The notes under the pieces were generated by a model. The model was given only the letters and a program-made list of their open reading frames with translations. It had not been told where the DNA came from and ran no database searches. From UHGV virus genome UHGV-0205859: 15,795 nucleotides of DNA; one strand, written 5' to 3'. A program made the position numbers and the translations under genes. How positions within the stretch are numbered: the stretch's first letter is position 1; each line of letters opens with the position of its first letter. This document shows, piece after piece, positions 1-12,211 of this stretch. The stretch is from a virus.

Positions 1-410
1 ACCGTGATGGTACGGGTATCTGGACCATCTGCCGTGGTGCCACAATGGTGGACGGTAAGCCTGTCGTTCCTGGCATGAAGCTGACGAAGGAAAAATGCGA
101 CCGAGTGAACGCCATCGAACGGGATAAGGCGCTGACGTGGGTGGAGAAAAACATCAAAGTGCCACTGACCGAACCGCAGAAAGCGGGCATTGCGTCATTC
201 TGTCCGTACAACATCGGGCCTTCGAAATGCTTCACCTCAACGTTTTACCGGAAACTGAACGCCGGAGACCGGAAAGGTGCATGTGCTGAAATCCGCCGGT
301 GGATATATGACGGTGGCAAAGACTGCTGTATCCGCTCAAATAATTGCTACGGTCAGGTATCCCGGCGTGACCAGGAAAGTGCGCTGGCGTGCTGGGGAAT
401 CGACAGATAA
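1..410 (+). CDS. R: Phage endolysin (lysozyme, glycoside hydrolase family 24), 5'-truncated by the window edge
   Basis: Frame 3 is open from nt 3 (RDGTGIWTICRGATMVDGKPV...) and ends at TGA 408-410. The C-terminal region (FYRKLNAGDRKGACAEIRRWIYDGGK) resembles lambdoid prophage lysozymes of the RrrD/phage 21 R type as recalled. It sits immediately upstream of Rz/Rz1. Confidence 0.85.
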   Translation, partial: RDGTGIWTICRGATMVDGKPVVPGMKLTKEKCDRVNAIERDKALTWVEKNIKVPLTEPQKAGIASFCPYNIGPSKCFTSTFYRKLNAGDRKGACAEIRRWIYDGGKDCCIRSNNCYGQVSRRDQESALACWGIDR

Positions 411-1213: not shown

Positions 1214-2229
1214 AAACCGGTAAGGGATAATCCGCTTAAGATTTACCGGTGGCGAAGAGAGCCAAGGCATCAAATTACGCGATTACCTGTAGCAGTACAA
1301 TATATGGTTTACGTTTTCTTATTAATTCCAGATGTATGCCTGTGCGCCGTATCGTCGCCGTATTCCTGCATTAACAGAGACCGCAGCCCTTGCGGGATAC
1401 TCCTCTGCGCGAGTGTGCGGGTATAATCAAAAACGATGCACACCGGGTTTTGCTGCGAGAACTGAACGGGGCGCGTATTGTATCCTCATAATTGCCCGCC
1501 CAGTGCGATGGTGGAAGAAACCGGAATGATGAATTGTGAATGCAAAATATGGTTCTGCATTGAATAATACAGGCATTGTTTCCTGTTTACATCCAGAACA
1601 TATTTAAATATGCCTGCCTGGGACAGAGTAAAGTGGCTACGGAAAAAAGGTATGCTTCCGGATAAATGTTTTTTGATAACCAGTTTTGTCCAGATATTGT
1701 TTGATCTGTGGTTTATATAAACAGGTCTTTTTTTGGTCTGTACCGTGATCATACTATGGTTATGTGTGGTAAAGCGTATATTCCCTGTAGACAGGAAATA
1801 AAAACAATGCGAGATATCATTTTTTTTTAAGATAGTCAGTGACGGAAATAATATCGCTATTGTGTGATGAAATAAGCAAGGATATAACAGAGCTAAGCCG
1901 GTTGTTCTCTGTGGGGACACAATCTGGTGGCGATAAATCAGAATGCGTGATGTAAAGATTAAGCATGTAAAACCATGGTGTTTAACTGAAGGTTACTGTG
2001 CGGCGGGAAAATAATGAAGTGAAAAGCTAATGTCTATTTGTTATTTTCGCATGATAAAGCAGAGGTATTATTTTTTTGCTAATTTATTCTTTTGATATGT
2101 CTTATCTGTATTTGTGGTTGGTTGTAAACCTCTATTGCAACTGACATCGTCAGCAATGTTGCATACTCATTCAGGTGCAACATGGCGTGGAAGAAAGAAT
2201 ACAGGTATGAGGATATTTGAGTGGATGAT

Positions 2230-2256
2230 AAAAAAAAGCCGCAGGTGGTATGCGGC
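2230..2256 (-). terminator. Candidate rho-independent terminator on the minus strand
   Basis: Plus strand reads A8 (2230-2237) then GCCGCA (2238-2243), a 7-nt loop, and TGCGGC (2251-2256). On the minus strand this is a perfect 6-bp GC-rich stem followed by eight T residues. Confidence 0.5.
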
Positions 2257-2375
2257 ATGAAATGGCACGAATCAGTGGATATATCTTTTTTCGTTTGTAT
2301 TTTTATCTTATTTCCAGAGGTGTAATCAATTCGAAAAATACGTGAGAACAGAGCGTATATTTTCGACCTTTTTAT

Positions 2376-2432
2376 GGGTCCTCCTGGTGGGGTCGGCCTG
2401 TCCACGGGGCGGGTCGGCGCGGAAAAAGGCGC
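2376..2432. other. Candidate cos region (cosN-like GC-rich block) for cohesive-end packaging
   Basis: A sharply GC-rich island inside AT-rich DNA, about 190 bp upstream of the terminase small-subunit start, matching lambda's cosN-to-Nu1 spacing. ACGGGGCGGGTCGGCGCGG (2404-2422) resembles the lambda cos sequence ACGGGGCGGCGACCTCGCGGG as recalled. A second GGGGCGGC occurs at 2542-2549. Confidence 0.4.
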
Positions 2433-2608
2433 ATTTTTGTGATTTTATCGCCATCATCATCATGTCTGTAACTTATTGTTTTAAATTGTTTTGATGCAAA
2501 AAAGATGATGAATGTGGTTGATTTTTGTTCGACATCTTTGTGGGGCGGCATTTCTTTACAAAAAAACAGAGTCACTTCTGTTTTGCGGGTTACGTGGAGG
2601 ACGTGTAA

Positions 2609-5205: not shown

Positions 5206-5414
5206 GTATTGATGATGTCAGGAACATGATACAGCGGTATCGCGATGCGGAAATGGCGGTACTGGAGGGAAAATCTGTCACGTTTAACGGGCAGCAACTG
5301 ACGCTGGAAAGTCTGTCACAGATCCGCGCCGGTCGTCAGGAGTGGGAGCGAAGACTTACGGCGATGGTGAACCGCAGACGCGGGGAGCCCGGGTTTAAAC
5401 TGGCGAGGTTCTGA
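5202..5414 (+). CDS. W: Head-tail joining protein gpW
   Basis: 70 aa from GTG 5202, with AGGAGG at 5190-5195 and overlap with the terminase stop (GTGA). The C-terminal RRRGEPGF resembles lambda W RRRGPAGF as recalled. The ORF-track start at 5178 is an upstream in-frame GTG without a Shine-Dalgarno sequence. Confidence 0.8.
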   Translation: MSIDDVRNMIQRYRDAEMAVLEGKSVTFNGQQLTLESLSQIRAGRQEWERRLTAMVNRRRGEPGFKLARF

Positions 5415-6919
5415 TGGCGATTAGCGATGATGTGATTGGTTTTTTCTCGCCCGGCTGGAAAGCAGCGCGATTACGCTCAAGGGCGTTAATTATGGCCTAT
5501 GAGGCCGTGAAACCCACCAGGACGCATAAAGCACGCCGGGAAAACCGTTCTGCCGATCAGCTCAGTAAATACGGTGCGGTTTCCCTTCGGGAGCAGGCCC
5601 GCTTTCTGGATATCAATCATGACCTGGTGATAGGCGTGTTTGACAAGCTGGAGGAGCGGGTGATTGGTGCGAAGGGGATCACCGTTGAGCCTAATCCGGT
5701 GATGAAAAACGGGGAGATTGCGGCGGAGCTGGCAGCGGATATCCGGCGGTTGTGGGCAGAATGGTCTGTCAGTCCGGATGTGACCGGACAGTACACCCGT
5801 CCCATGCTCGAACGCCTGTTACTGCGTACCTGGCTGCGTGACGGGGAGGTGTTTGCGCAGATGGTCAGTGGTGCGGCAAACGGTCTTAAGCGGTCTGCCG
5901 GTGTGCCTTTCTGGCTTGAGGCGATGGAGCCGGATTTTGTGCCCATGCGCAGTGATGAGTCTGCCGGACTGAATCAAGGCGTTTTTCTGGATGAGTGGGG
6001 GAGGCCGAAAAAATATCTGGTTTACAAAAATTATCCGGTTTCCGGGATACAGAGTGATACCAAAGAGATCGCCGCAGACAAAATGGTGCATCTGAAATTC
6101 ACCCGCCGCCTGCACCAGACGCGTGGTGCGTCCATGTTGTCCGGTGTGATGGTGCGTATCAGTGCGCTTAAGGAATATGAAGATGCCGAACTGACAGCGG
6201 CGCGTATTGCTGCGGCGCTGGGGCTGTATATCCGTAAGGGGGATGGACAGGATTACGACGATCAGGGAGCAGACAAAAAAGAAGAGCGGGAAGTGCATAT
6301 CACCCCGGGCATTATCTATGACGATTTGCGTAAGGGTGAGGATATCGGCATGGTCAAATCCGACCGTCCTAATCCAAATCTTGAAAATTTTCGTAATGGT
6401 CAGTTGCGTGCGGTGGCTGCAGGCAGTCGTCTGAGCTTTTCCAGTACCGCACGCAACTACAATGGCACCTACAGTTCACAGCGGCAGGAGCTGGTCGAGT
6501 CCACCGACGGTTACCTTATCCTGCAGGACTGCTTTATTGGCGCGGTAACCCGCCCGGTGTACCGTGCATGGCTGAATATGGTGGTTGCTGCCGGTCTGCT
6601 GAAAATCCCGTCTTGCCTGGATATGAAGACGTTATATAACGCGACATATTCAGGTCCGGTGATGCCGTGGATAGATCCGGTTAAGGAGGCTGAAGCCTGG
6701 CGGATACAGATCCGGGGTGGTGCCGCAACGGAATCCGACTGGGTACGTGCCGGCGGACGTCATCCGGATGAGGTTAAACGTCGCCGCAAGGCTGAAATTG
6801 ATGAAAACTGCAGACTGGGGCTGGTCTTTGATACTGACCCCGTCAACGACAAAGGAGGCAACAGTGCCGGAACTGAACGACAGCGTCAACAGGCCACCGA
6901 CAGCCAGCATGAAGAATAA
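5414..6919 (+). CDS. B: Portal protein (lambda gpB family)
   Basis: 501 aa; ATG overlaps the W stop (TGATG). Size and position between W and the capsid gene fit a portal; weak motif resemblance to lambda B. Confidence 0.85.
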   Translation: MAISDDVIGFFSPGWKAARLRSRALIMAYEAVKPTRTHKARRENRSADQLSKYGAVSLREQARFLDINHDLVIGVFDKLEERVIGAKGITVEPNPVMKNGEIAAELAADIRRLWAEWSVSPDVTGQYTRPMLERLLLRTWLRDGEVFAQMVSGAANGLKRSAGVPFWLEAMEPDFVPMRSDESAGLNQGVFLDEWGRPKKYLVYKNYPVSGIQSDTKEIAADKMVHLKFTRRLHQTRGASMLSGVMVRISALKEYEDAELTAARIAAALGLYIRKGDGQDYDDQGADKKEEREVHITPGIIYDDLRKGEDIGMVKSDRPNPNLENFRNGQLRAVAAGSRLSFSSTARNYNGTYSSQRQELVESTDGYLILQDCFIGAVTRPVYRAWLNMVVAAGLLKIPSCLDMKTLYNATYSGPVMPWIDPVKEAEAWRIQIRGGAATESDWVRAGGRHPDEVKRRRKAEIDENCRLGLVFDTDPVNDKGGNSAGTERQRQQATDSQHEE

Positions 6920-8888
6920 ATCCTGGTTCAGGATGCAGGCTGGGGAGCCGGGTGACGCGGATATTTATATTTATGACGAGATTGGTTTCTGGGGAGTTAC
7001 CGCGAAGCAGTTTGTCTGCGATCTGAATGCTCTGGGTGATATCACCCACATTAATCTCCATATCAACTCACCGGGTGGCGATGTCTTTGAAGGCATCGCC
7101 ATTTTTAATGCCCTGAAAAATCAGGGGGCGACCATTACCGTGTATGTGGATGGCGTTGCCGCATCGATGGCATCCGTGATTGCGATGGCCGGTGATACGG
7201 TCATTATGCCGGAAAATGCTTTCATGATGATCCATAAGCCATGGGGTTTCAGTGGGGGGGATGCTGAGGATATGCGCAGTTATGCCGATCTGCTGGATAA
7301 AGTCGAATCGGTACTGTTGCCAGCCTATGCGCAAAAAACAGGAAAAACCACCGATGAAATTGCCGCCATGCTGGCGGATGAGACCTGGATGTCAGGTGCC
7401 GAGTGTCTGGCACACGGATTTGCTGACCAGGTGACGCCAGCCGTTAAGGCAATGGCATGTATTCAGTCAAAACGTACAGAGGAATTTAAAAAGATGCCGG
7501 AATCCATCCGAAACATGATTACTCCGCCACGCAACAGTGCCCCGCGTGATACCACAGTGACAATCCCTGCACCGGCGGTAACAGAACCATCACCGGTACC
7601 GGCAGTGTCTGATGAGGAGACCATTCGCGCTGGTGTCCTGGCTGAGCAGAAAGCCCGCATGTCAGGCATTAACGATCTGTTTGCCATGTTTGGCGGTCGC
7701 TATCAGACGCTTCAGGCACAGTGCGTGGCCGATCCTGACTGTTCGCTGGAAATGGCCCGTGAACGTCTGCTGAATGAAATGGGTAAGGAATCCTCGCCGA
7801 CCAACAAAAACACACCGGCCCATATTTATGCCGGAAACGGTAATTTTGTTGGAGACGGGATCCGCAAGGCGCTGATGGCCCGCGCCGGATTTGAGACTAC
7901 GGAGAAGGATAATGCCTATAACGGTATGACCCTGCGTGAATGCGCCCGTATGTCACTGACAGAGCGGGGGATCGGGGTGGCCAGTTATAACCCCATGCAG
8001 ATGGTGGGGCTGGCGCTGACGCACAGTACCTCAGATTTTGGCAATATTCTGCTGGATGTGTCGAATAAGGGGTTAATCCAGGGCTGGGAGGAATCAGAAG
8101 AAACCTTCCAGAAATGGACCCGCAAAGGTCGCCTGTCTGACTTCAAAACGGCATACCGTGTGGGGATGGGGGGATTTGGCTCTCTGCGTCAGGTGCGGGA
8201 AGGGGCAGAGTACAAGTACATCACCACCTCAGATCGTAAGGAGACCATTGCACTGGCGACCTACGGGGAAATTTTCTCCATCACCCGTCAGGCCATTATC
8301 AATGATGACCTGAATATGCTGGTTGATGTCCCGATGAAGATGGGGCGTGCCGCGAAAGCGACGATTGGTGATTTGGTCTACAAGGTGTTAACGGATAACC
8401 CGAAACTGTCAGACGGTAAGGCGTTGTTCCATGCCGATCACAAGAATATTGCCACGGGCGGGATTTCCGTTTCGGGGCTGGATGCGGCACGTCAGATGAT
8501 GCGCCTGCAGAAAGAGGGCGATCGTGCGCTGAATATCCGTCCGGCCTTTATGCTGGTACCGGTGGCGCTGGAGACGGTGGCAAACCAGACCATCAAGTCG
8601 GCCAGTGTGAAAGGGGCGGATGCAAACGCCGGTGTCATTAACCCGATCCAGAACTTTGCCGAAGTGATTGCGGAAGCTCGTCTTGATGCGGCAGATCCGA
8701 AAACCTGGTACCTGGCTGCGGCACAGGGGACCGACACCATTGAAGTGGCCTGGCTTGATGGTGTGGACACTCCCTACATTGACCAGCAGGAAGGCTTCAC
8801 CACTGACGGTATCGCCACAAAAATCCGTATCGATGCCGGTGTGGCACCGCTTGACTGGCGCGGACTGGTGCGTTCAGCCGCTGCCTGA
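6909..8888 (+). CDS. Fused prohead protease (ClpP/S49-like), scaffold-like linker and major capsid protein
   Basis: N-terminal region carries ClpP-like protease motifs (DIYIYDEIGFWGV, INSPGGDVFEGIAIFNAL, ASMASVIAMAGD), then a Pro/Ala/Glu-rich linker, then a roughly 330-aa C-terminal capsid-like domain. Start ATG 6909 is chosen just upstream of the protease motifs; ATG 6933 and the ORF-track start 6717 are alternatives. Confidence 0.8.
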   Translation: MKNKSWFRMQAGEPGDADIYIYDEIGFWGVTAKQFVCDLNALGDITHINLHINSPGGDVFEGIAIFNALKNQGATITVYVDGVAASMASVIAMAGDTVIMPENAFMMIHKPWGFSGGDAEDMRSYADLLDKVESVLLPAYAQKTGKTTDEIAAMLADETWMSGAECLAHGFADQVTPAVKAMACIQSKRTEEFKKMPESIRNMITPPRNSAPRDTTVTIPAPAVTEPSPVPAVSDEETIRAGVLAEQKARMSGINDLFAMFGGRYQTLQAQCVADPDCSLEMARERLLNEMGKESSPTNKNTPAHIYAGNGNFVGDGIRKALMARAGFETTEKDNAYNGMTLRECARMSLTERGIGVASYNPMQMVGLALTHSTSDFGNILLDVSNKGLIQGWEESEETFQKWTRKGRLSDFKTAYRVGMGGFGSLRQVREGAEYKYITTSDRKETIALATYGEIFSITRQAIINDDLNMLVDVPMKMGRAAKATIGDLVYKVLTDNPKLSDGKALFHADHKNIATGGISVSGLDAARQMMRLQKEGDRALNIRPAFMLVPVALETVANQTIKSASVKGADANAGVINPIQNFAEVIAEARLDAADPKTWYLAAAQGTDTIEVAWLDGVDTPYIDQQEGFTTDGIATKIRIDAGVAPLDWRGLVRSAAA

Positions 8889-8910: not shown

Positions 8911-8929
8911 GCCCGAAAGGGCTTTTTTT
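8911..8929 (+). terminator. Candidate intrinsic terminator (attenuator) downstream of the capsid gene
   Basis: GCCC-GAAA-GGGC hairpin with a GNRA loop (8911-8922) followed by T7 (8923-8929), 23 nt after the capsid stop. Confidence 0.45.
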
Positions 8930-8974
8930 ATGCCTGAAAACAGCCCCGTCGGGGCTGTCCGGAGATACAGCATT

Positions 8975-9301
8975 ATGGCTAAAAATTTTGTACAGGACGG
9001 CACCACCATTGAACTGGTGAATGCCGGGGATCAAAGCATTCTTAGCGGTGCCGCAGTGGTGGTCGGCAGCATGGTGGCGGTGGCCATTACCGATATTCCT
9101 GCCGGGGAGACCGGTGACGGGTTCGCCGAAGGCGTGTTCCTGCTGCCAAAACAGTCTGCCGATGATATTCAGGCCGGTATGGTTGTTTATCTGAAGGACG
9201 GGATTGTGCAGCCTGCCGCAGACGGCGCAGTGGCGGCGGGGATGGCATGGGAGCATGCGCCGTCAGGCAGCACCACGGTGGCGGTCAAAATCAATGCCTG
9301 A
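8975..9301 (+). CDS. Putative head decoration protein (DUF2190-like small capsid-associated protein)
   Basis: 108 aa from ATG 8975, with GGAG at 8961-8964. Gly/Ala/Val-rich small protein directly downstream of the capsid gene. The ORF-track start at 8930 lacks an RBS and overlaps the terminator T-run. Confidence 0.5.
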   Translation: MAKNFVQDGTTIELVNAGDQSILSGAAVVVGSMVAVAITDIPAGETGDGFAEGVFLLPKQSADDIQAGMVVYLKDGIVQPAADGAVAAGMAWEHAPSGSTTVAVKINA

Positions 9302-11396: not shown

Positions 11397-11795
11397 ATGT
11401 TTCTGAAAACTGAACCGTTTGAATATAACGGGCAGACTGTCACGCTCAGCGAACTGTCCGCCCTGCAGCGCCTCGAGTACCTGGCCTGGGTGAAGGAGAA
11501 GGAAGAGCAGCGGGGGGAGGGGGGCAGCGAGCAGCAGGCGCTTGATGATCTCATCCGGGAAGGCGCGCTGCTGGTTGCGATGTCGCTCTGGCATAACCAT
11601 GAACTGAAAGGCACATTGCCCTCCCTGCGTCAGGAGACAGACAGGATCATGCAGGAGGTGCTGACCACCTGGCCTGTGGAGGCCATTGCCGCAGGCAGAA
11701 ATGTGGTGGCCAGACTGAGCGGTATGTCTGCACCTGTGGATGAACCGTCAGGGAAAGAACCGGTAACGGCAAAAAAGCGTACGAAGGAGAGCTGA
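11397..11795 (+). CDS. G: Tail assembly chaperone gpG
   Basis: 132 aa. MFLKTEPFEYNGQTVTLSELSALQRLEYLA and VAMSLWHNH and QEVLTTWP match lambda G as recalled. Confidence 0.9.
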   Translation: MFLKTEPFEYNGQTVTLSELSALQRLEYLAWVKEKEEQRGEGGSEQQALDDLIREGALLVAMSLWHNHELKGTLPSLRQETDRIMQEVLTTWPVEAIAAGRNVVARLSGMSAPVDEPSGKEPVTAKKRTKES

Positions 11796-12211
11796 TTTTT
11801 GTACTGAAACTGGCGCGCGAGATGAGCCGACCTGACTGGCGCGCCATGCTTGCCGGAATGTCATCAACCGAATATACCGACTGGCGTCATTTTTACCGCA
11901 CGCATTTTTTTCAGGATGTGCAGCTGGACATGCATTTTGCCGGGATGACGTATGCCGTCCTCAGCCTGTTTTTTGCCGATCCGGAGATGCATCCGTCTGA
12001 CTTCAGTCTGCTGCGTGAGCCGGAAAAAGGGGAAAAAGAGGATGATGATGCGCTGATGCAAAAGGCAACAGGGCTTGCCGGCGGTGTCCGTTATGGTCCT
12101 GATGGTGTGGTTGTGGCGTCTGACAGTCTGACGCCCTCCGGGCATGAAGATGACGTCATACTGATGACGGTATCAGAAGGTATCGCAGGAGGTGTCCGCT
12201 ATGTCGGGTAA
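11397..12211 (+). CDS. GT: Tail assembly chaperone G-T fusion, produced by programmed -1 ribosomal frameshift near 11771-11777
   Basis: The -1 frame is open from 11744 and continues through the G stop. It encodes ...ELIFVLKLAREMSRPDWRAMLAGMSSTEY..., matching lambda gpT as recalled. A slippery heptamer A_AAA_AAG is in correct register in the G frame. Confidence 0.8.
11771..11777 (+). promoter_or_regulatory. Slippery heptamer A_AAA_AAG for the G to G-T -1 frameshift
   Basis: In G's frame the codons are gcA AAA AAG (A at 11771, AAA 11772-74, AAG 11775-77). The heptamer lies inside the 11744-11795 window where both frames are open. Confidence 0.7.

Follow-up and report, generated by a model that had tools for sequence, protein, structure and literature searches.

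A lambdoid prophage gene for a ClpP-like prohead protease, scaffold and major capsid fusion protein, and a candidate nested start within it

The head module found in the 15,795-nucleotide stretch of virus genome UHGV-0205859 (here the window) consists, in this order, of a portal gene, a long fusion gene, a DUF2190 cement gene, and head-tail and tail genes (table 1). The frame of the fusion gene is open from position 6675 on the + strand, with the earliest start codon after the in-frame stop at 6717, and the ORF that extends from there to the stop codon at 8886-8888 specifies a ClpP-like head-maturation protease at the N-terminus and a Mu-gpT-like capsid domain at the C-terminus, joined by a Pro-rich linker and a helical middle region. 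The original prediction, made from the DNA alone, had recognized a single ORF of approximately 660 residues (659 when counted from the ATG at 6909) in place of separate C/Nu3/E-type head genes, and no further ORF for a protease, a scaffold or a capsid protein was found from the portal gene to the tail genes. The module thus has a single capsid gene, the fusion gene, which is flanked by the portal and decoration genes. In what follows, residues of domain matches are counted from ATG 6909 and feature coordinates refer to the start at GTG 6864. Initial searches of proteins and of IMG/VR yielded close relatives only (at least 76% identity), and diverse homologues were obtained by searching again with Pseudomonas and Vibrio homologues as queries; the start-codon and Shine-Dalgarno (SD) statistics are based on 21 dereplicated, diverged homologues and the wobble scan on 635 columns.

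Table 1. Features of the head module around the fusion gene (residues numbered from GTG 6864).
Feature	Position	Strand	Remarks
Lambda-family portal gene	5414..6919	+	Pfam Phage_portal_2 E=2.9e-82; 3' end overlaps the fusion-gene start
Shine-Dalgarno AAGGAGG	6852..6858	+	5 nt upstream of GTG 6864
Protease-scaffold-capsid fusion gene	6864..8888	+	start GTG; 674 aa, 73.0 kDa; NF045540 1001.8 bits
ClpP-related head-maturation protease domain	6957..7433	+	residues 32-190; NF045542 223.4 bits (cutoff 120)
Predicted catalytic Ser101, motif AASMAS	7164..7166	+	aligned block opposite ClpP GMAASMA (active-site Ser); invariant in homologues
Predicted catalytic His124, motif MIHKP	7233..7235	+	pairs with ClpP IHQP His; invariant
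Glu173, place of the third ClpP triad residue (Asp)	7380..7382	+	E pairs with ClpP D in pairwise alignments
Internal SD-like GAGGA, hypothetical internal ribosome-binding site	7479..7483	+	10 nt upstream of ATG 7494
Internal in-frame ATG (Met211), candidate nested start	7494..7496	+	protease/linker junction; 464-aa (50.3 kDa) scaffold-capsid product
Variable low-complexity linker, Pro/Thr/Ala/Val-rich	7515..7619	+	residues 218-252
Helical middle region, putative Nu3-like scaffolding segment	7620..7811	+	residues 253-316
Conserved segment AGNGN...MTLRE.AR...	7812..7988	+	between helical region and capsid model; conservation
Major capsid protein domain, Mu-gpT-like	7989..8876	+	residues 376-671; Pfam Phage_capsid_4 E=4e-57
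Terminator-like hairpin GCCC-GAAA-GGGC + T7	8911..8929	+	just 3' of the fusion-gene stop codon
Head decoration (cement) protein gene, DUF2190	8975..9301	+	Pfam Phage_cement_2 E=6.3e-20; RefSeq start equivalent to 8975

The DUF2190 decoration gene is functionally linked to this capsid type. In the interval that separates it from the fusion gene, a hairpin followed by a T-run is found at the same position in 16 of the 20 representatives with downstream sequence, with stems that differ in sequence. Its folding energy alone is not unusual (z=-0.47), and the weight of the feature as a terminator-like element rests on positional conservation rather than on energy; the terminator scan did not report it because the stem comprises only four pairs. 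A similar arrangement is seen in HK97, the record of which marks a putative terminator directly after the capsid gene.

GTG 6864 is the most likely point of translation initiation and is preceded by a strong ribosome-binding site within the 3' end of the portal gene. The mean anti-SD duplex energy at this column (-9.2 kcal/mol, z=-4.05) is the strongest in the ORF, and 19 of the 21 diverged homologues have a start codon aligned with it, while in the other two an ATG follows as the next codon. The Gifsy-2 record begins its gene at the equivalent codon (MPEV from ATG in Gifsy-2, VPEL from GTG in the window), and many public gene calls for the family give 671-675 residues. Public records differ in the start codon, however, with products from 648 to 722 residues, and RefSeq starts the 97.5% identical E. 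coli copy (the best match among complete E. coli genomes) at the ATG equivalent to 6909 (659 residues). The start originally left uncertain between 6909, 6933 and 6717 is best placed at a codon missing from that list: no SD sequence is present at 6909 or 6933, and 6717, also lacking one, is merely the first start codon of the open frame, deep within the portal gene. The overlap with the portal gene, on the other hand, had been correctly noticed, and amounts to 56 nt from GTG 6864 and 11 nt from ATG 6909.

The N-terminal part is predicted to be a ClpP-fold serine protease, as the original reading had it. Besides the NF045542 match above cutoff, Pfam CLP_protease covers residues 38-176 (E=4.1e-36), PDB chains of ClpP match the domain down to E=6e-18, and Ser101 and His124 preserve the catalytic Ser and His of ClpP. 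Glu173, found at the position of the triad Asp, is invariant among the homologues, whereas the adjacent Asp172 is not.

The following linker had been described as low-complexity and Pro/Ala/Glu-rich. Low complexity and the Pro and Ala content are confirmed (8 Pro and 4 Ala of 35 residues), but Glu occurs only three times, and the segment is rich in Thr (5) and Val (4) instead; alignments show that it is weakly conserved and of variable length between homologues. The middle region contains three helices (pLDDT 58-83), the only confident part of an AlphaFold2 model of the protein. PHROG 53 (the lambda gpC family) matches residues 39-321, and hhalign comparison of a scaffold-capsid profile with lambda Nu3 gave a weak match to Nu3 residues 117-159 (E=0.098), so that, on weak similarity to lambda C/Nu3, the scaffold role of this region is putative. 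Cleavage at maturation probably takes place within the conserved segment that separates the helices from the capsid domain, or at its borders.

At the junction between protease and linker, ATG 7494 is kept in all 21 homologues, where it is followed by an invariant Pro, and its mean SD duplex energy of -6.7 kcal/mol falls in the lowest 1.2% of columns. The spacing of the SD-like sequence is at the long end of the usual range. Glu-Glu codons alone create SD-like strings. Codon 206 is xAG in 21 of 21 homologues (GAG, CAG or AAG, for E, Q or K), always followed by GAx; it is one of only four among the 635 columns with an invariant third base, the only one of these four at which the amino acid varies, and the top-ranked of 19 matched E/K/Q columns.

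An equivalent site is present in a sister family, NF045541 (scaf_prot_MCP2), as exemplified by Vibrio phage 1.050.O, in which the capsid gene likewise lies between portal and DUF2190 genes. The linker, scaffold and capsid parts of that protein are homologous to those of the window protein (28% identity from residue 231), whereas the N-terminal protease of the family, of approx. 195 residues, shows no sequence relationship to the ClpP-like one. All 16 of 16 NF045541-type members carry an ATG at the corresponding place, preceded at a distance of 6-9 nt by an SD-like GAGG or GGGGA, with different local peptides (MKF, MPK, MPS, MNK, MTE). The window protein itself falls outside NF045541, scoring 418.9 bits against a cutoff of 525 and matching over residues 199-658 only, without the protease part. 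The candidate internal start appears to be common to NF045540, the family of the window protein, and NF045541, despite their unrelated proteases. The conserved ATG and AGGA with its invariant wobble base, at a site shared with the sister family, suggest a nested scaffold-capsid product like that of lambda C/Nu3, where translation of the Nu3 scaffold begins in frame inside C. It is tentatively proposed, as a possibility that falls somewhat short of an even chance, that the gene is a nested two-product one, which would yield the 674-residue chain and, from ATG 7494, a protease-less chain of 464 residues.

An even chance is assigned to the alternative that a single product is made, that ATG 7494 and the AGGA reflect a constraint at the protein level, and that every capsid subunit keeps its own protease until maturation, with the E-E/D-F-x-x-M-P junction motif perhaps being a cleavage or docking site. 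The invariance of E207, F208, M211 and P212 in a four-sequence alignment, and of F208, M211 and P212 among the 21 sequences (position 207 being Glu or Asp), agrees with such a constraint, but the G at the wobble position of codon 206 is retained while the residue changes and nearby synonymous sites vary freely, and both its rarity among third positions and its rank among matched columns speak against it. Likewise, while the long SD spacing and the comparable SD-like energy of Met137 (-6.3 kcal/mol), reached inside the protease domain from coding constraints alone, speak for a single product, the ATG and its upstream motif persist throughout NF045541 in a different peptide context. In the citing literature, the Gifsy-2 gene is presented as a single composite gene. 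A literature search by family name returned nothing relevant, and no mention of an internal start for genes of this kind was found in the searchable literature, to which the primary Gifsy-2 paper does not belong, so that such a start may already have been considered.

The capsid-like character ascribed to the C-terminal domain was borne out by its assignment to the Mu-gpT-like group of phage major capsid proteins: Phage_capsid_4 spans residues 361-656, Pfam Mu-like_gpT also matches (E=6.4e-10), and a profile of the 21 homologues finds, among solved capsid chains, 8rkc/8rkx ('Mu GpT domain', E=1e-9) and 9jod (2e-6). The HMM search on the two halves suggested at the outset accordingly placed protease families at the N-terminus and Phage_capsid_4 at the C-terminus. 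No similarity was detected by hhalign between the scaffold-capsid profile and the single HK97 gp5 and lambda gpE sequences. The AlphaFold2 model, calculated from 25 aligned sequences of close relatives (75-97% identity), was unusable (mean pLDDT 35.9), and for this reason the HK97 fold predicted for the domain is derived from sequence profiles only. That the gene specifies just protease and scaffold, with the capsid protein encoded elsewhere, would fit the older record names common among phage and protein matches ('protease/scaffold protein', 'Clp protease ClpP', 'head-tail preconnector Nu3'), but it is highly improbable given the profile and solved-chain matches over the C-terminal 300 residues, a head module without any other capsid-like ORF, and current RefSeq and NCBIfam names that include the major capsid protein fusion.

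As a whole, the fusion protein matches NF045540 from end to end and well above the curated cutoff of 475 bits (residues 17-657 on positions 2-651 of the 652-position model), as expected of a member, and PHROG 133 along its full length; RefSeq lists the homologues under the name 'ClpP-like prohead protease/major capsid protein fusion protein'. Related sequences occur in 2070 of 5426 complete E. coli genomes (approx. 38%) and full-length relatives in 82 phage records. Very probably, then, this is the sole head-shell gene of a lambdoid prophage, belonging to the ClpP-like prohead protease/scaffold/major capsid fusion family, of which the Gifsy-2 tripartite gene is the type example. The frame is intact when compared with the family models and with Gifsy-2, and therefore the ORF is not a fusion created by sequencing error; although many phages have a separate ClpP-like protease gene (approx. 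200-250 residues) and lambda and HK97 have separate genes, the idea that a sequencing error, frameshift or decaying pseudogene joined a protease-scaffold gene to a capsid gene retains virtually no probability, and is already refuted by a fused frame that is unbroken in approximately 2000 complete E. coli genomes and the 82 phage records, is shared by isolated infectious phages such as cdtI, mEp460 and Gifsy-2 and by homologues down to 51% identity, is matched end to end by the curated full-length HMM, and gives a protein found identically in an independent NCBI assembly.

A tripartite capsid gene in Gifsy-2, cited as a parallel in the original prediction, was reportedly described by Effantin et al. 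in 2010 (Virology 402:355). The parallel was sound: the Gifsy-2 product (STM1034.3n, NC_010393) has the same three-part architecture and is 62% identical to the window protein over its full length. The two loci also share, in matching order around the fusion gene, the small and large terminase genes, a small ORF, the portal gene, the DUF2190 gene, a 'Gifsy-2' family protein and lambda-like tail genes. They differ by 38% in sequence, in the sequence and length of the linker, and by a 7-residue insertion before AGNGN in Gifsy-2; nothing suggests a functional difference between the two genes. According to later papers, which cite Effantin et al. on this capsid gene, the Gifsy-2 protease and coat genes are fused (PMC12315714), the capsid has T=7 symmetry (PMC8814770) and a trimeric protein sits at each capsid 3-fold axis (PMC8538268). 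Protease, scaffold and capsid protein are also combined in one gene in gp5 of Pseudomonas phage MD8 (PMC8508860). From the remaining NF045540/PHROG 133 members (E. coli prophages, Stx-converting phages, cdtI, mEp460), as from MD8 gp5, the window gene shows no difference of substance, its DNA being 92-97% identical to the E. coli and Stx phage copies and 78% to those of cdtI and mEp460.

With lambda C/Nu3/D/E the locus shares its place in the lambdoid late operon, a protease-scaffold fusion and a decoration protein next to it. However, the lambda protease is annotated as S49 and that of the window is ClpP-like (S14), the capsid protein E is encoded by a separate gene and has no detectable sequence similarity to the window protein, and lambda D belongs to a decoration family other than DUF2190; the lambda-type division into protease-scaffold and capsid genes is replaced here by one unbroken frame (6864-8888). 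The likeness to HK97 lies in the delta domain of gp5, a scaffold function on the capsid N-terminus that is removed by a co-assembled protease, but gp4, the HK97 protease, is the product of a separate gene and of a different family, and gp5 has no detectable similarity to the window protein. The HK97 shell is stabilized by covalent cross-links, without a decoration protein.

By homology with Gifsy-2, lambda and HK97, the 73-kDa protease-scaffold-capsid chain started at GTG 6864 would form, through its capsid domains and starting on the portal, a T=7 procapsid whose interior holds the N-terminal parts. There the protease would then remove the protease, linker and scaffold parts to leave a mature capsid protein of approximately 300-360 residues, a size estimated from homologues, and the autoproteolytic release foreseen in the original prediction is a reasonable inference. 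The shell would expand at DNA packaging and be stabilized by trimers of the adjacent DUF2190 decoration protein. Cleavage and its site, T number and decoration are thus transferred to the window gene from its homologues; self-processing and a decorated T=7 capsid are known for Gifsy-2 alone, by way of the citing papers. In the nested two-product scheme, a second ribosome start at ATG 7494 would add the protease-less 50-kDa scaffold-capsid chain and, if this product is made, only a fraction of the subunits would therefore carry the protease, as with nested lambda C/Nu3. The ratio of protease to shell would then be set in the way seen for lambda C/Nu3 and Mu I/Z.

The fusion gene is intact and unremarkable, one more copy of a familiar prophage gene of a kind already described. 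Its recognition in the original prediction was correct but, as given, of little importance, the family being described, curated and very widespread among the prophages of enterobacteria, Stx-converting phages among them. For annotation, the comparative evidence favours the codon equivalent to GTG 6864 as the start, and public names such as 'Clp protease ClpP' and 'head-tail preconnector Nu3' are misleading for this gene. If the nested start is real, it would explain how several hundred protease domains per procapsid are avoided, and would extend the lambda C/Nu3 principle to the fusion-gene class.

The gene that ends at position 8888, in a frame open from 6675, joins a ClpP-like prohead protease to a major capsid protein, as the original prediction had read it, and along its full length it matches the NCBIfam family NF045540, 'ClpP-like prohead protease/major capsid protein fusion protein' (1001.8 bits; cutoff 475), and PHROG 133. 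Counting from ATG 6909 (659 residues), the Pfam CLP_protease model covers residues 38-176 (E=4e-36) and Phage_capsid_4 residues 361-656 (E=4e-57), with a weaker match to Mu-like_gpT, and NF045542, a model of the domain 'head maturation protease, ClpP-related', matches with 223 bits. Many solved ClpP chains align with the N-terminal part (best E=6e-18), with the Ser of AASMAS and the His of IHKP in register and a Glu where the ClpP triad has Asp. The predicted catalytic residues (Ser101, His124 and Glu173, counting from GTG 6864) are kept in all homologues examined. A profile of the C-terminal two-thirds of 21 homologues detected the solved capsid chains 8rkc/8rkx, 'Bacteriophage Mu GpT domain-containing protein' (E=1e-9), and 9jod, another major capsid protein (E=2e-6). 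By hhalign, no similarity was detected between the scaffold-capsid profile and the single sequences of HK97 gp5 and lambda gpE.

The late region of a lambdoid prophage makes up the window, with its genes in the order listed in the table, and a gene and domain survey found no head-shell gene other than the fusion gene between the portal and the tail genes. The low-GC stretch that separates the lysis genes from the terminase resembles an inserted 'moron' cassette. The genes for the tail assembly chaperones, G and T, adjoin as they do in lambda, where the G-T product is made by a -1 frameshift.

Features of the window, in gene order, and parts of the fusion protein (residues counted from GTG 6864)
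Feature	Position	Strand	Remarks
Lysozyme gene end			first in window order
Rz			after lysozyme end
Low-GC stretch	about 1486-2500		between lysis genes and terminase; GC 0.38 vs about 0.55 elsewhere
DUF1398 gene	1486-1920	minus	inside low-GC stretch
ORF without Pfam match	2079-2405	minus	inside low-GC stretch
Small terminase (DUF1441)			after low-GC stretch
Large terminase gpA			after small terminase
Small ORF			between gpA and portal genes
Portal gene, lambda-family	5414-6919		directly before fusion gene
Fusion gene	6864-8888		from preferred start; between portal and DUF2190 genes
DUF2190 'cement' (decoration) gene	ATG 8975		after fusion gene
'Gifsy-2' family gene			after DUF2190 gene
Tail genes Z, U, V, G, T, H, M			lambda-like; after 'Gifsy-2' family gene
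Tail assembly chaperone gene G	11397-11795		
Tail assembly chaperone gene T	11822-12211		adjoins G
Protease domain	residues about 32-190		
Conserved junction	KAMACIQSKRTEEFKKMPESI		after protease domain
Variable linker	residues 218-252		rich in Pro, Thr, Ala, Val
Helical region	residues 253-316		only part modelled with confidence in the structure prediction
Variable stretch	residues 308-318		
Conserved segment	starts AHIYAGNGN		after variable stretch
Region under capsid models	from about residue 376		

The start codon had been placed at 6909, 6933 or 6717, none of which has a ribosome-binding site. Dereplication of the fusion genes gathered from IMG/VR and from phage records left 21 sequences of less than 95% mutual identity, which are 51-100% identical to that of the window. 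AAGGAGG is found 5 nt upstream of GTG 6864, and 19 of the 21 homologues have a start codon in this column, the remaining two having an ATG one codon downstream. Nowhere else in the gene is the mean anti-Shine-Dalgarno pairing energy as strong as at this column (-9.2 kcal/mol, z=-4.05, 21 homologues), the Gifsy-2 record places the start at the equivalent codon, and many automatic gene calls of homologues are of 671-675 residues. Taken together, these data indicate GTG 6864 as the most likely start, which would give a protein of 674 residues (73.0 kDa) and an overlap of 56 nt with the portal gene, so that the overlap originally noted is retained with a different start. Public start calls for the family are inconsistent, with products of 648, 656-659, 671-675, 686-690, 707 and 722 residues.

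The match to PHROG 53 (the lambda gpC family) runs through the helical region that follows the linker, and in hhalign this region aligns weakly with lambda Nu3 (E=0.098); both support, short of proof, a scaffold-like role. The extent of the capsid models, together with the 302-305 residues of the solved Mu-GpT-type capsid chains matched by the profile, points to a mature capsid protein of roughly 300-360 residues.

Met211 (ATG 7494) marks the boundary between the protease and all downstream parts. All 21 homologues have an ATG here, with an invariant Pro as the next residue. Five codons before the ATG, the triplet is always xAG (GAG, CAG or AAG, for E, Q or K) and is followed by GAx, so that an invariant AGGA lies 10-11 nt upstream of the ATG. 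Only 4 of the 635 alignment columns in which the third base is free to vary have an invariant one: three are Leu or Met (CTG, TTG, ATG), and the fourth, the xAG column, is the sole one in which the amino acid changes; it is also the only one, among 19 columns of E, K or Q alone, with G in 21/21. The sister family NF045541 (scaf_prot_MCP2; e.g. the capsid gene of Vibrio phage 1.050.O) has an unrelated N-terminal protease, but its linker, scaffold and capsid parts are homologous. All 16 members of it that were compared have an ATG at the equivalent junction, where the local peptide differs, preceded at 6-9 nt by GAGG, GAGGT or GGGGA (-5.5 to -8.0 kcal/mol, 16/16).

An invariant ATG with a Shine-Dalgarno-like motif in both families is as expected if an internal start makes a protease-less chain. 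Initiation at ATG 7494, which is regarded as possible rather than probable, would yield a scaffold-capsid chain of 464 residues (50.3 kDa), for which the production of lambda Nu3 from within C provides a model. The spacing between the motif and ATG 7494 is long, Shine-Dalgarno-like strings arise from Glu codons, and a similar pairing energy, without the wobble conservation, is found at Met137 in the protease domain. The presence of the junction ATG and motif in both families suggests either a shared nested product or the remnant, still in working order, of an ancestral boundary between genes.

Downstream of the fusion gene, a hairpin resembling a terminator (8911-8929; GCCC-GAAA-GGGC, then T7) is found about 22 nt past the stop codon. 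Of the 20 diverged homologues having downstream sequence, 16 carry a hairpin with a T-run at the matching position, with differing stems (GCCC/GGGC or CCCCGC/GCGGGG), and such conservation of position suggests selection on the hairpin, which may raise capsid expression relative to the downstream genes. A putative terminator is likewise marked directly after the capsid gene in the HK97 record. A second GC-rich hairpin, CAGCCCC-GTC-GGGGCTG (8941-8957), lacks a T-run and lies after the first one and before the DUF2190 gene's ribosome-binding site; similar hairpins occur at the equivalent place in several enterobacterial homologues.

The kinship with Gifsy-2 that had been proposed is borne out by 62% identity over the whole length with its product (gene at 22471-24561 of NC_010393) and by the same gene order around the capsid gene. 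A T=7 capsid is described for Gifsy-2 in PMC8814770, one of the papers that refer to Effantin et al. for this phage. Related DNA occurs in 2070 of the 5426 complete E. coli genomes, where RefSeq annotates it under the NF045540 name, and in Stx-converting phages, cdtI, mEp460 and others; full-length relatives occur in 82 phage records and an identical protein in an NCBI assembly. Both the observation and the interpretation of the original prediction are thus correct, and the gene is a known and common one; the additions of the present analysis are limited to the correction of the start codon and the nested-start hypothesis. Misleading names are frequent in the family ('Clp protease ClpP', 'ATP-dependent Clp endopeptidase proteolytic subunit', 'head-tail preconnector protein Nu3'). 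An IS629/IS1203 insertion interrupts the homologous fusion gene of VT1-Sakai and of many O157:H7 strains, and those prophage copies are therefore without an intact capsid gene.

By homology, head assembly would begin with the capsid domains co-assembling on the portal, with their N-terminal parts inside. The enclosed protease would then be activated and the protease, linker and scaffold parts removed, after which the shell would expand as DNA is packaged, and DUF2190 trimers would bind.
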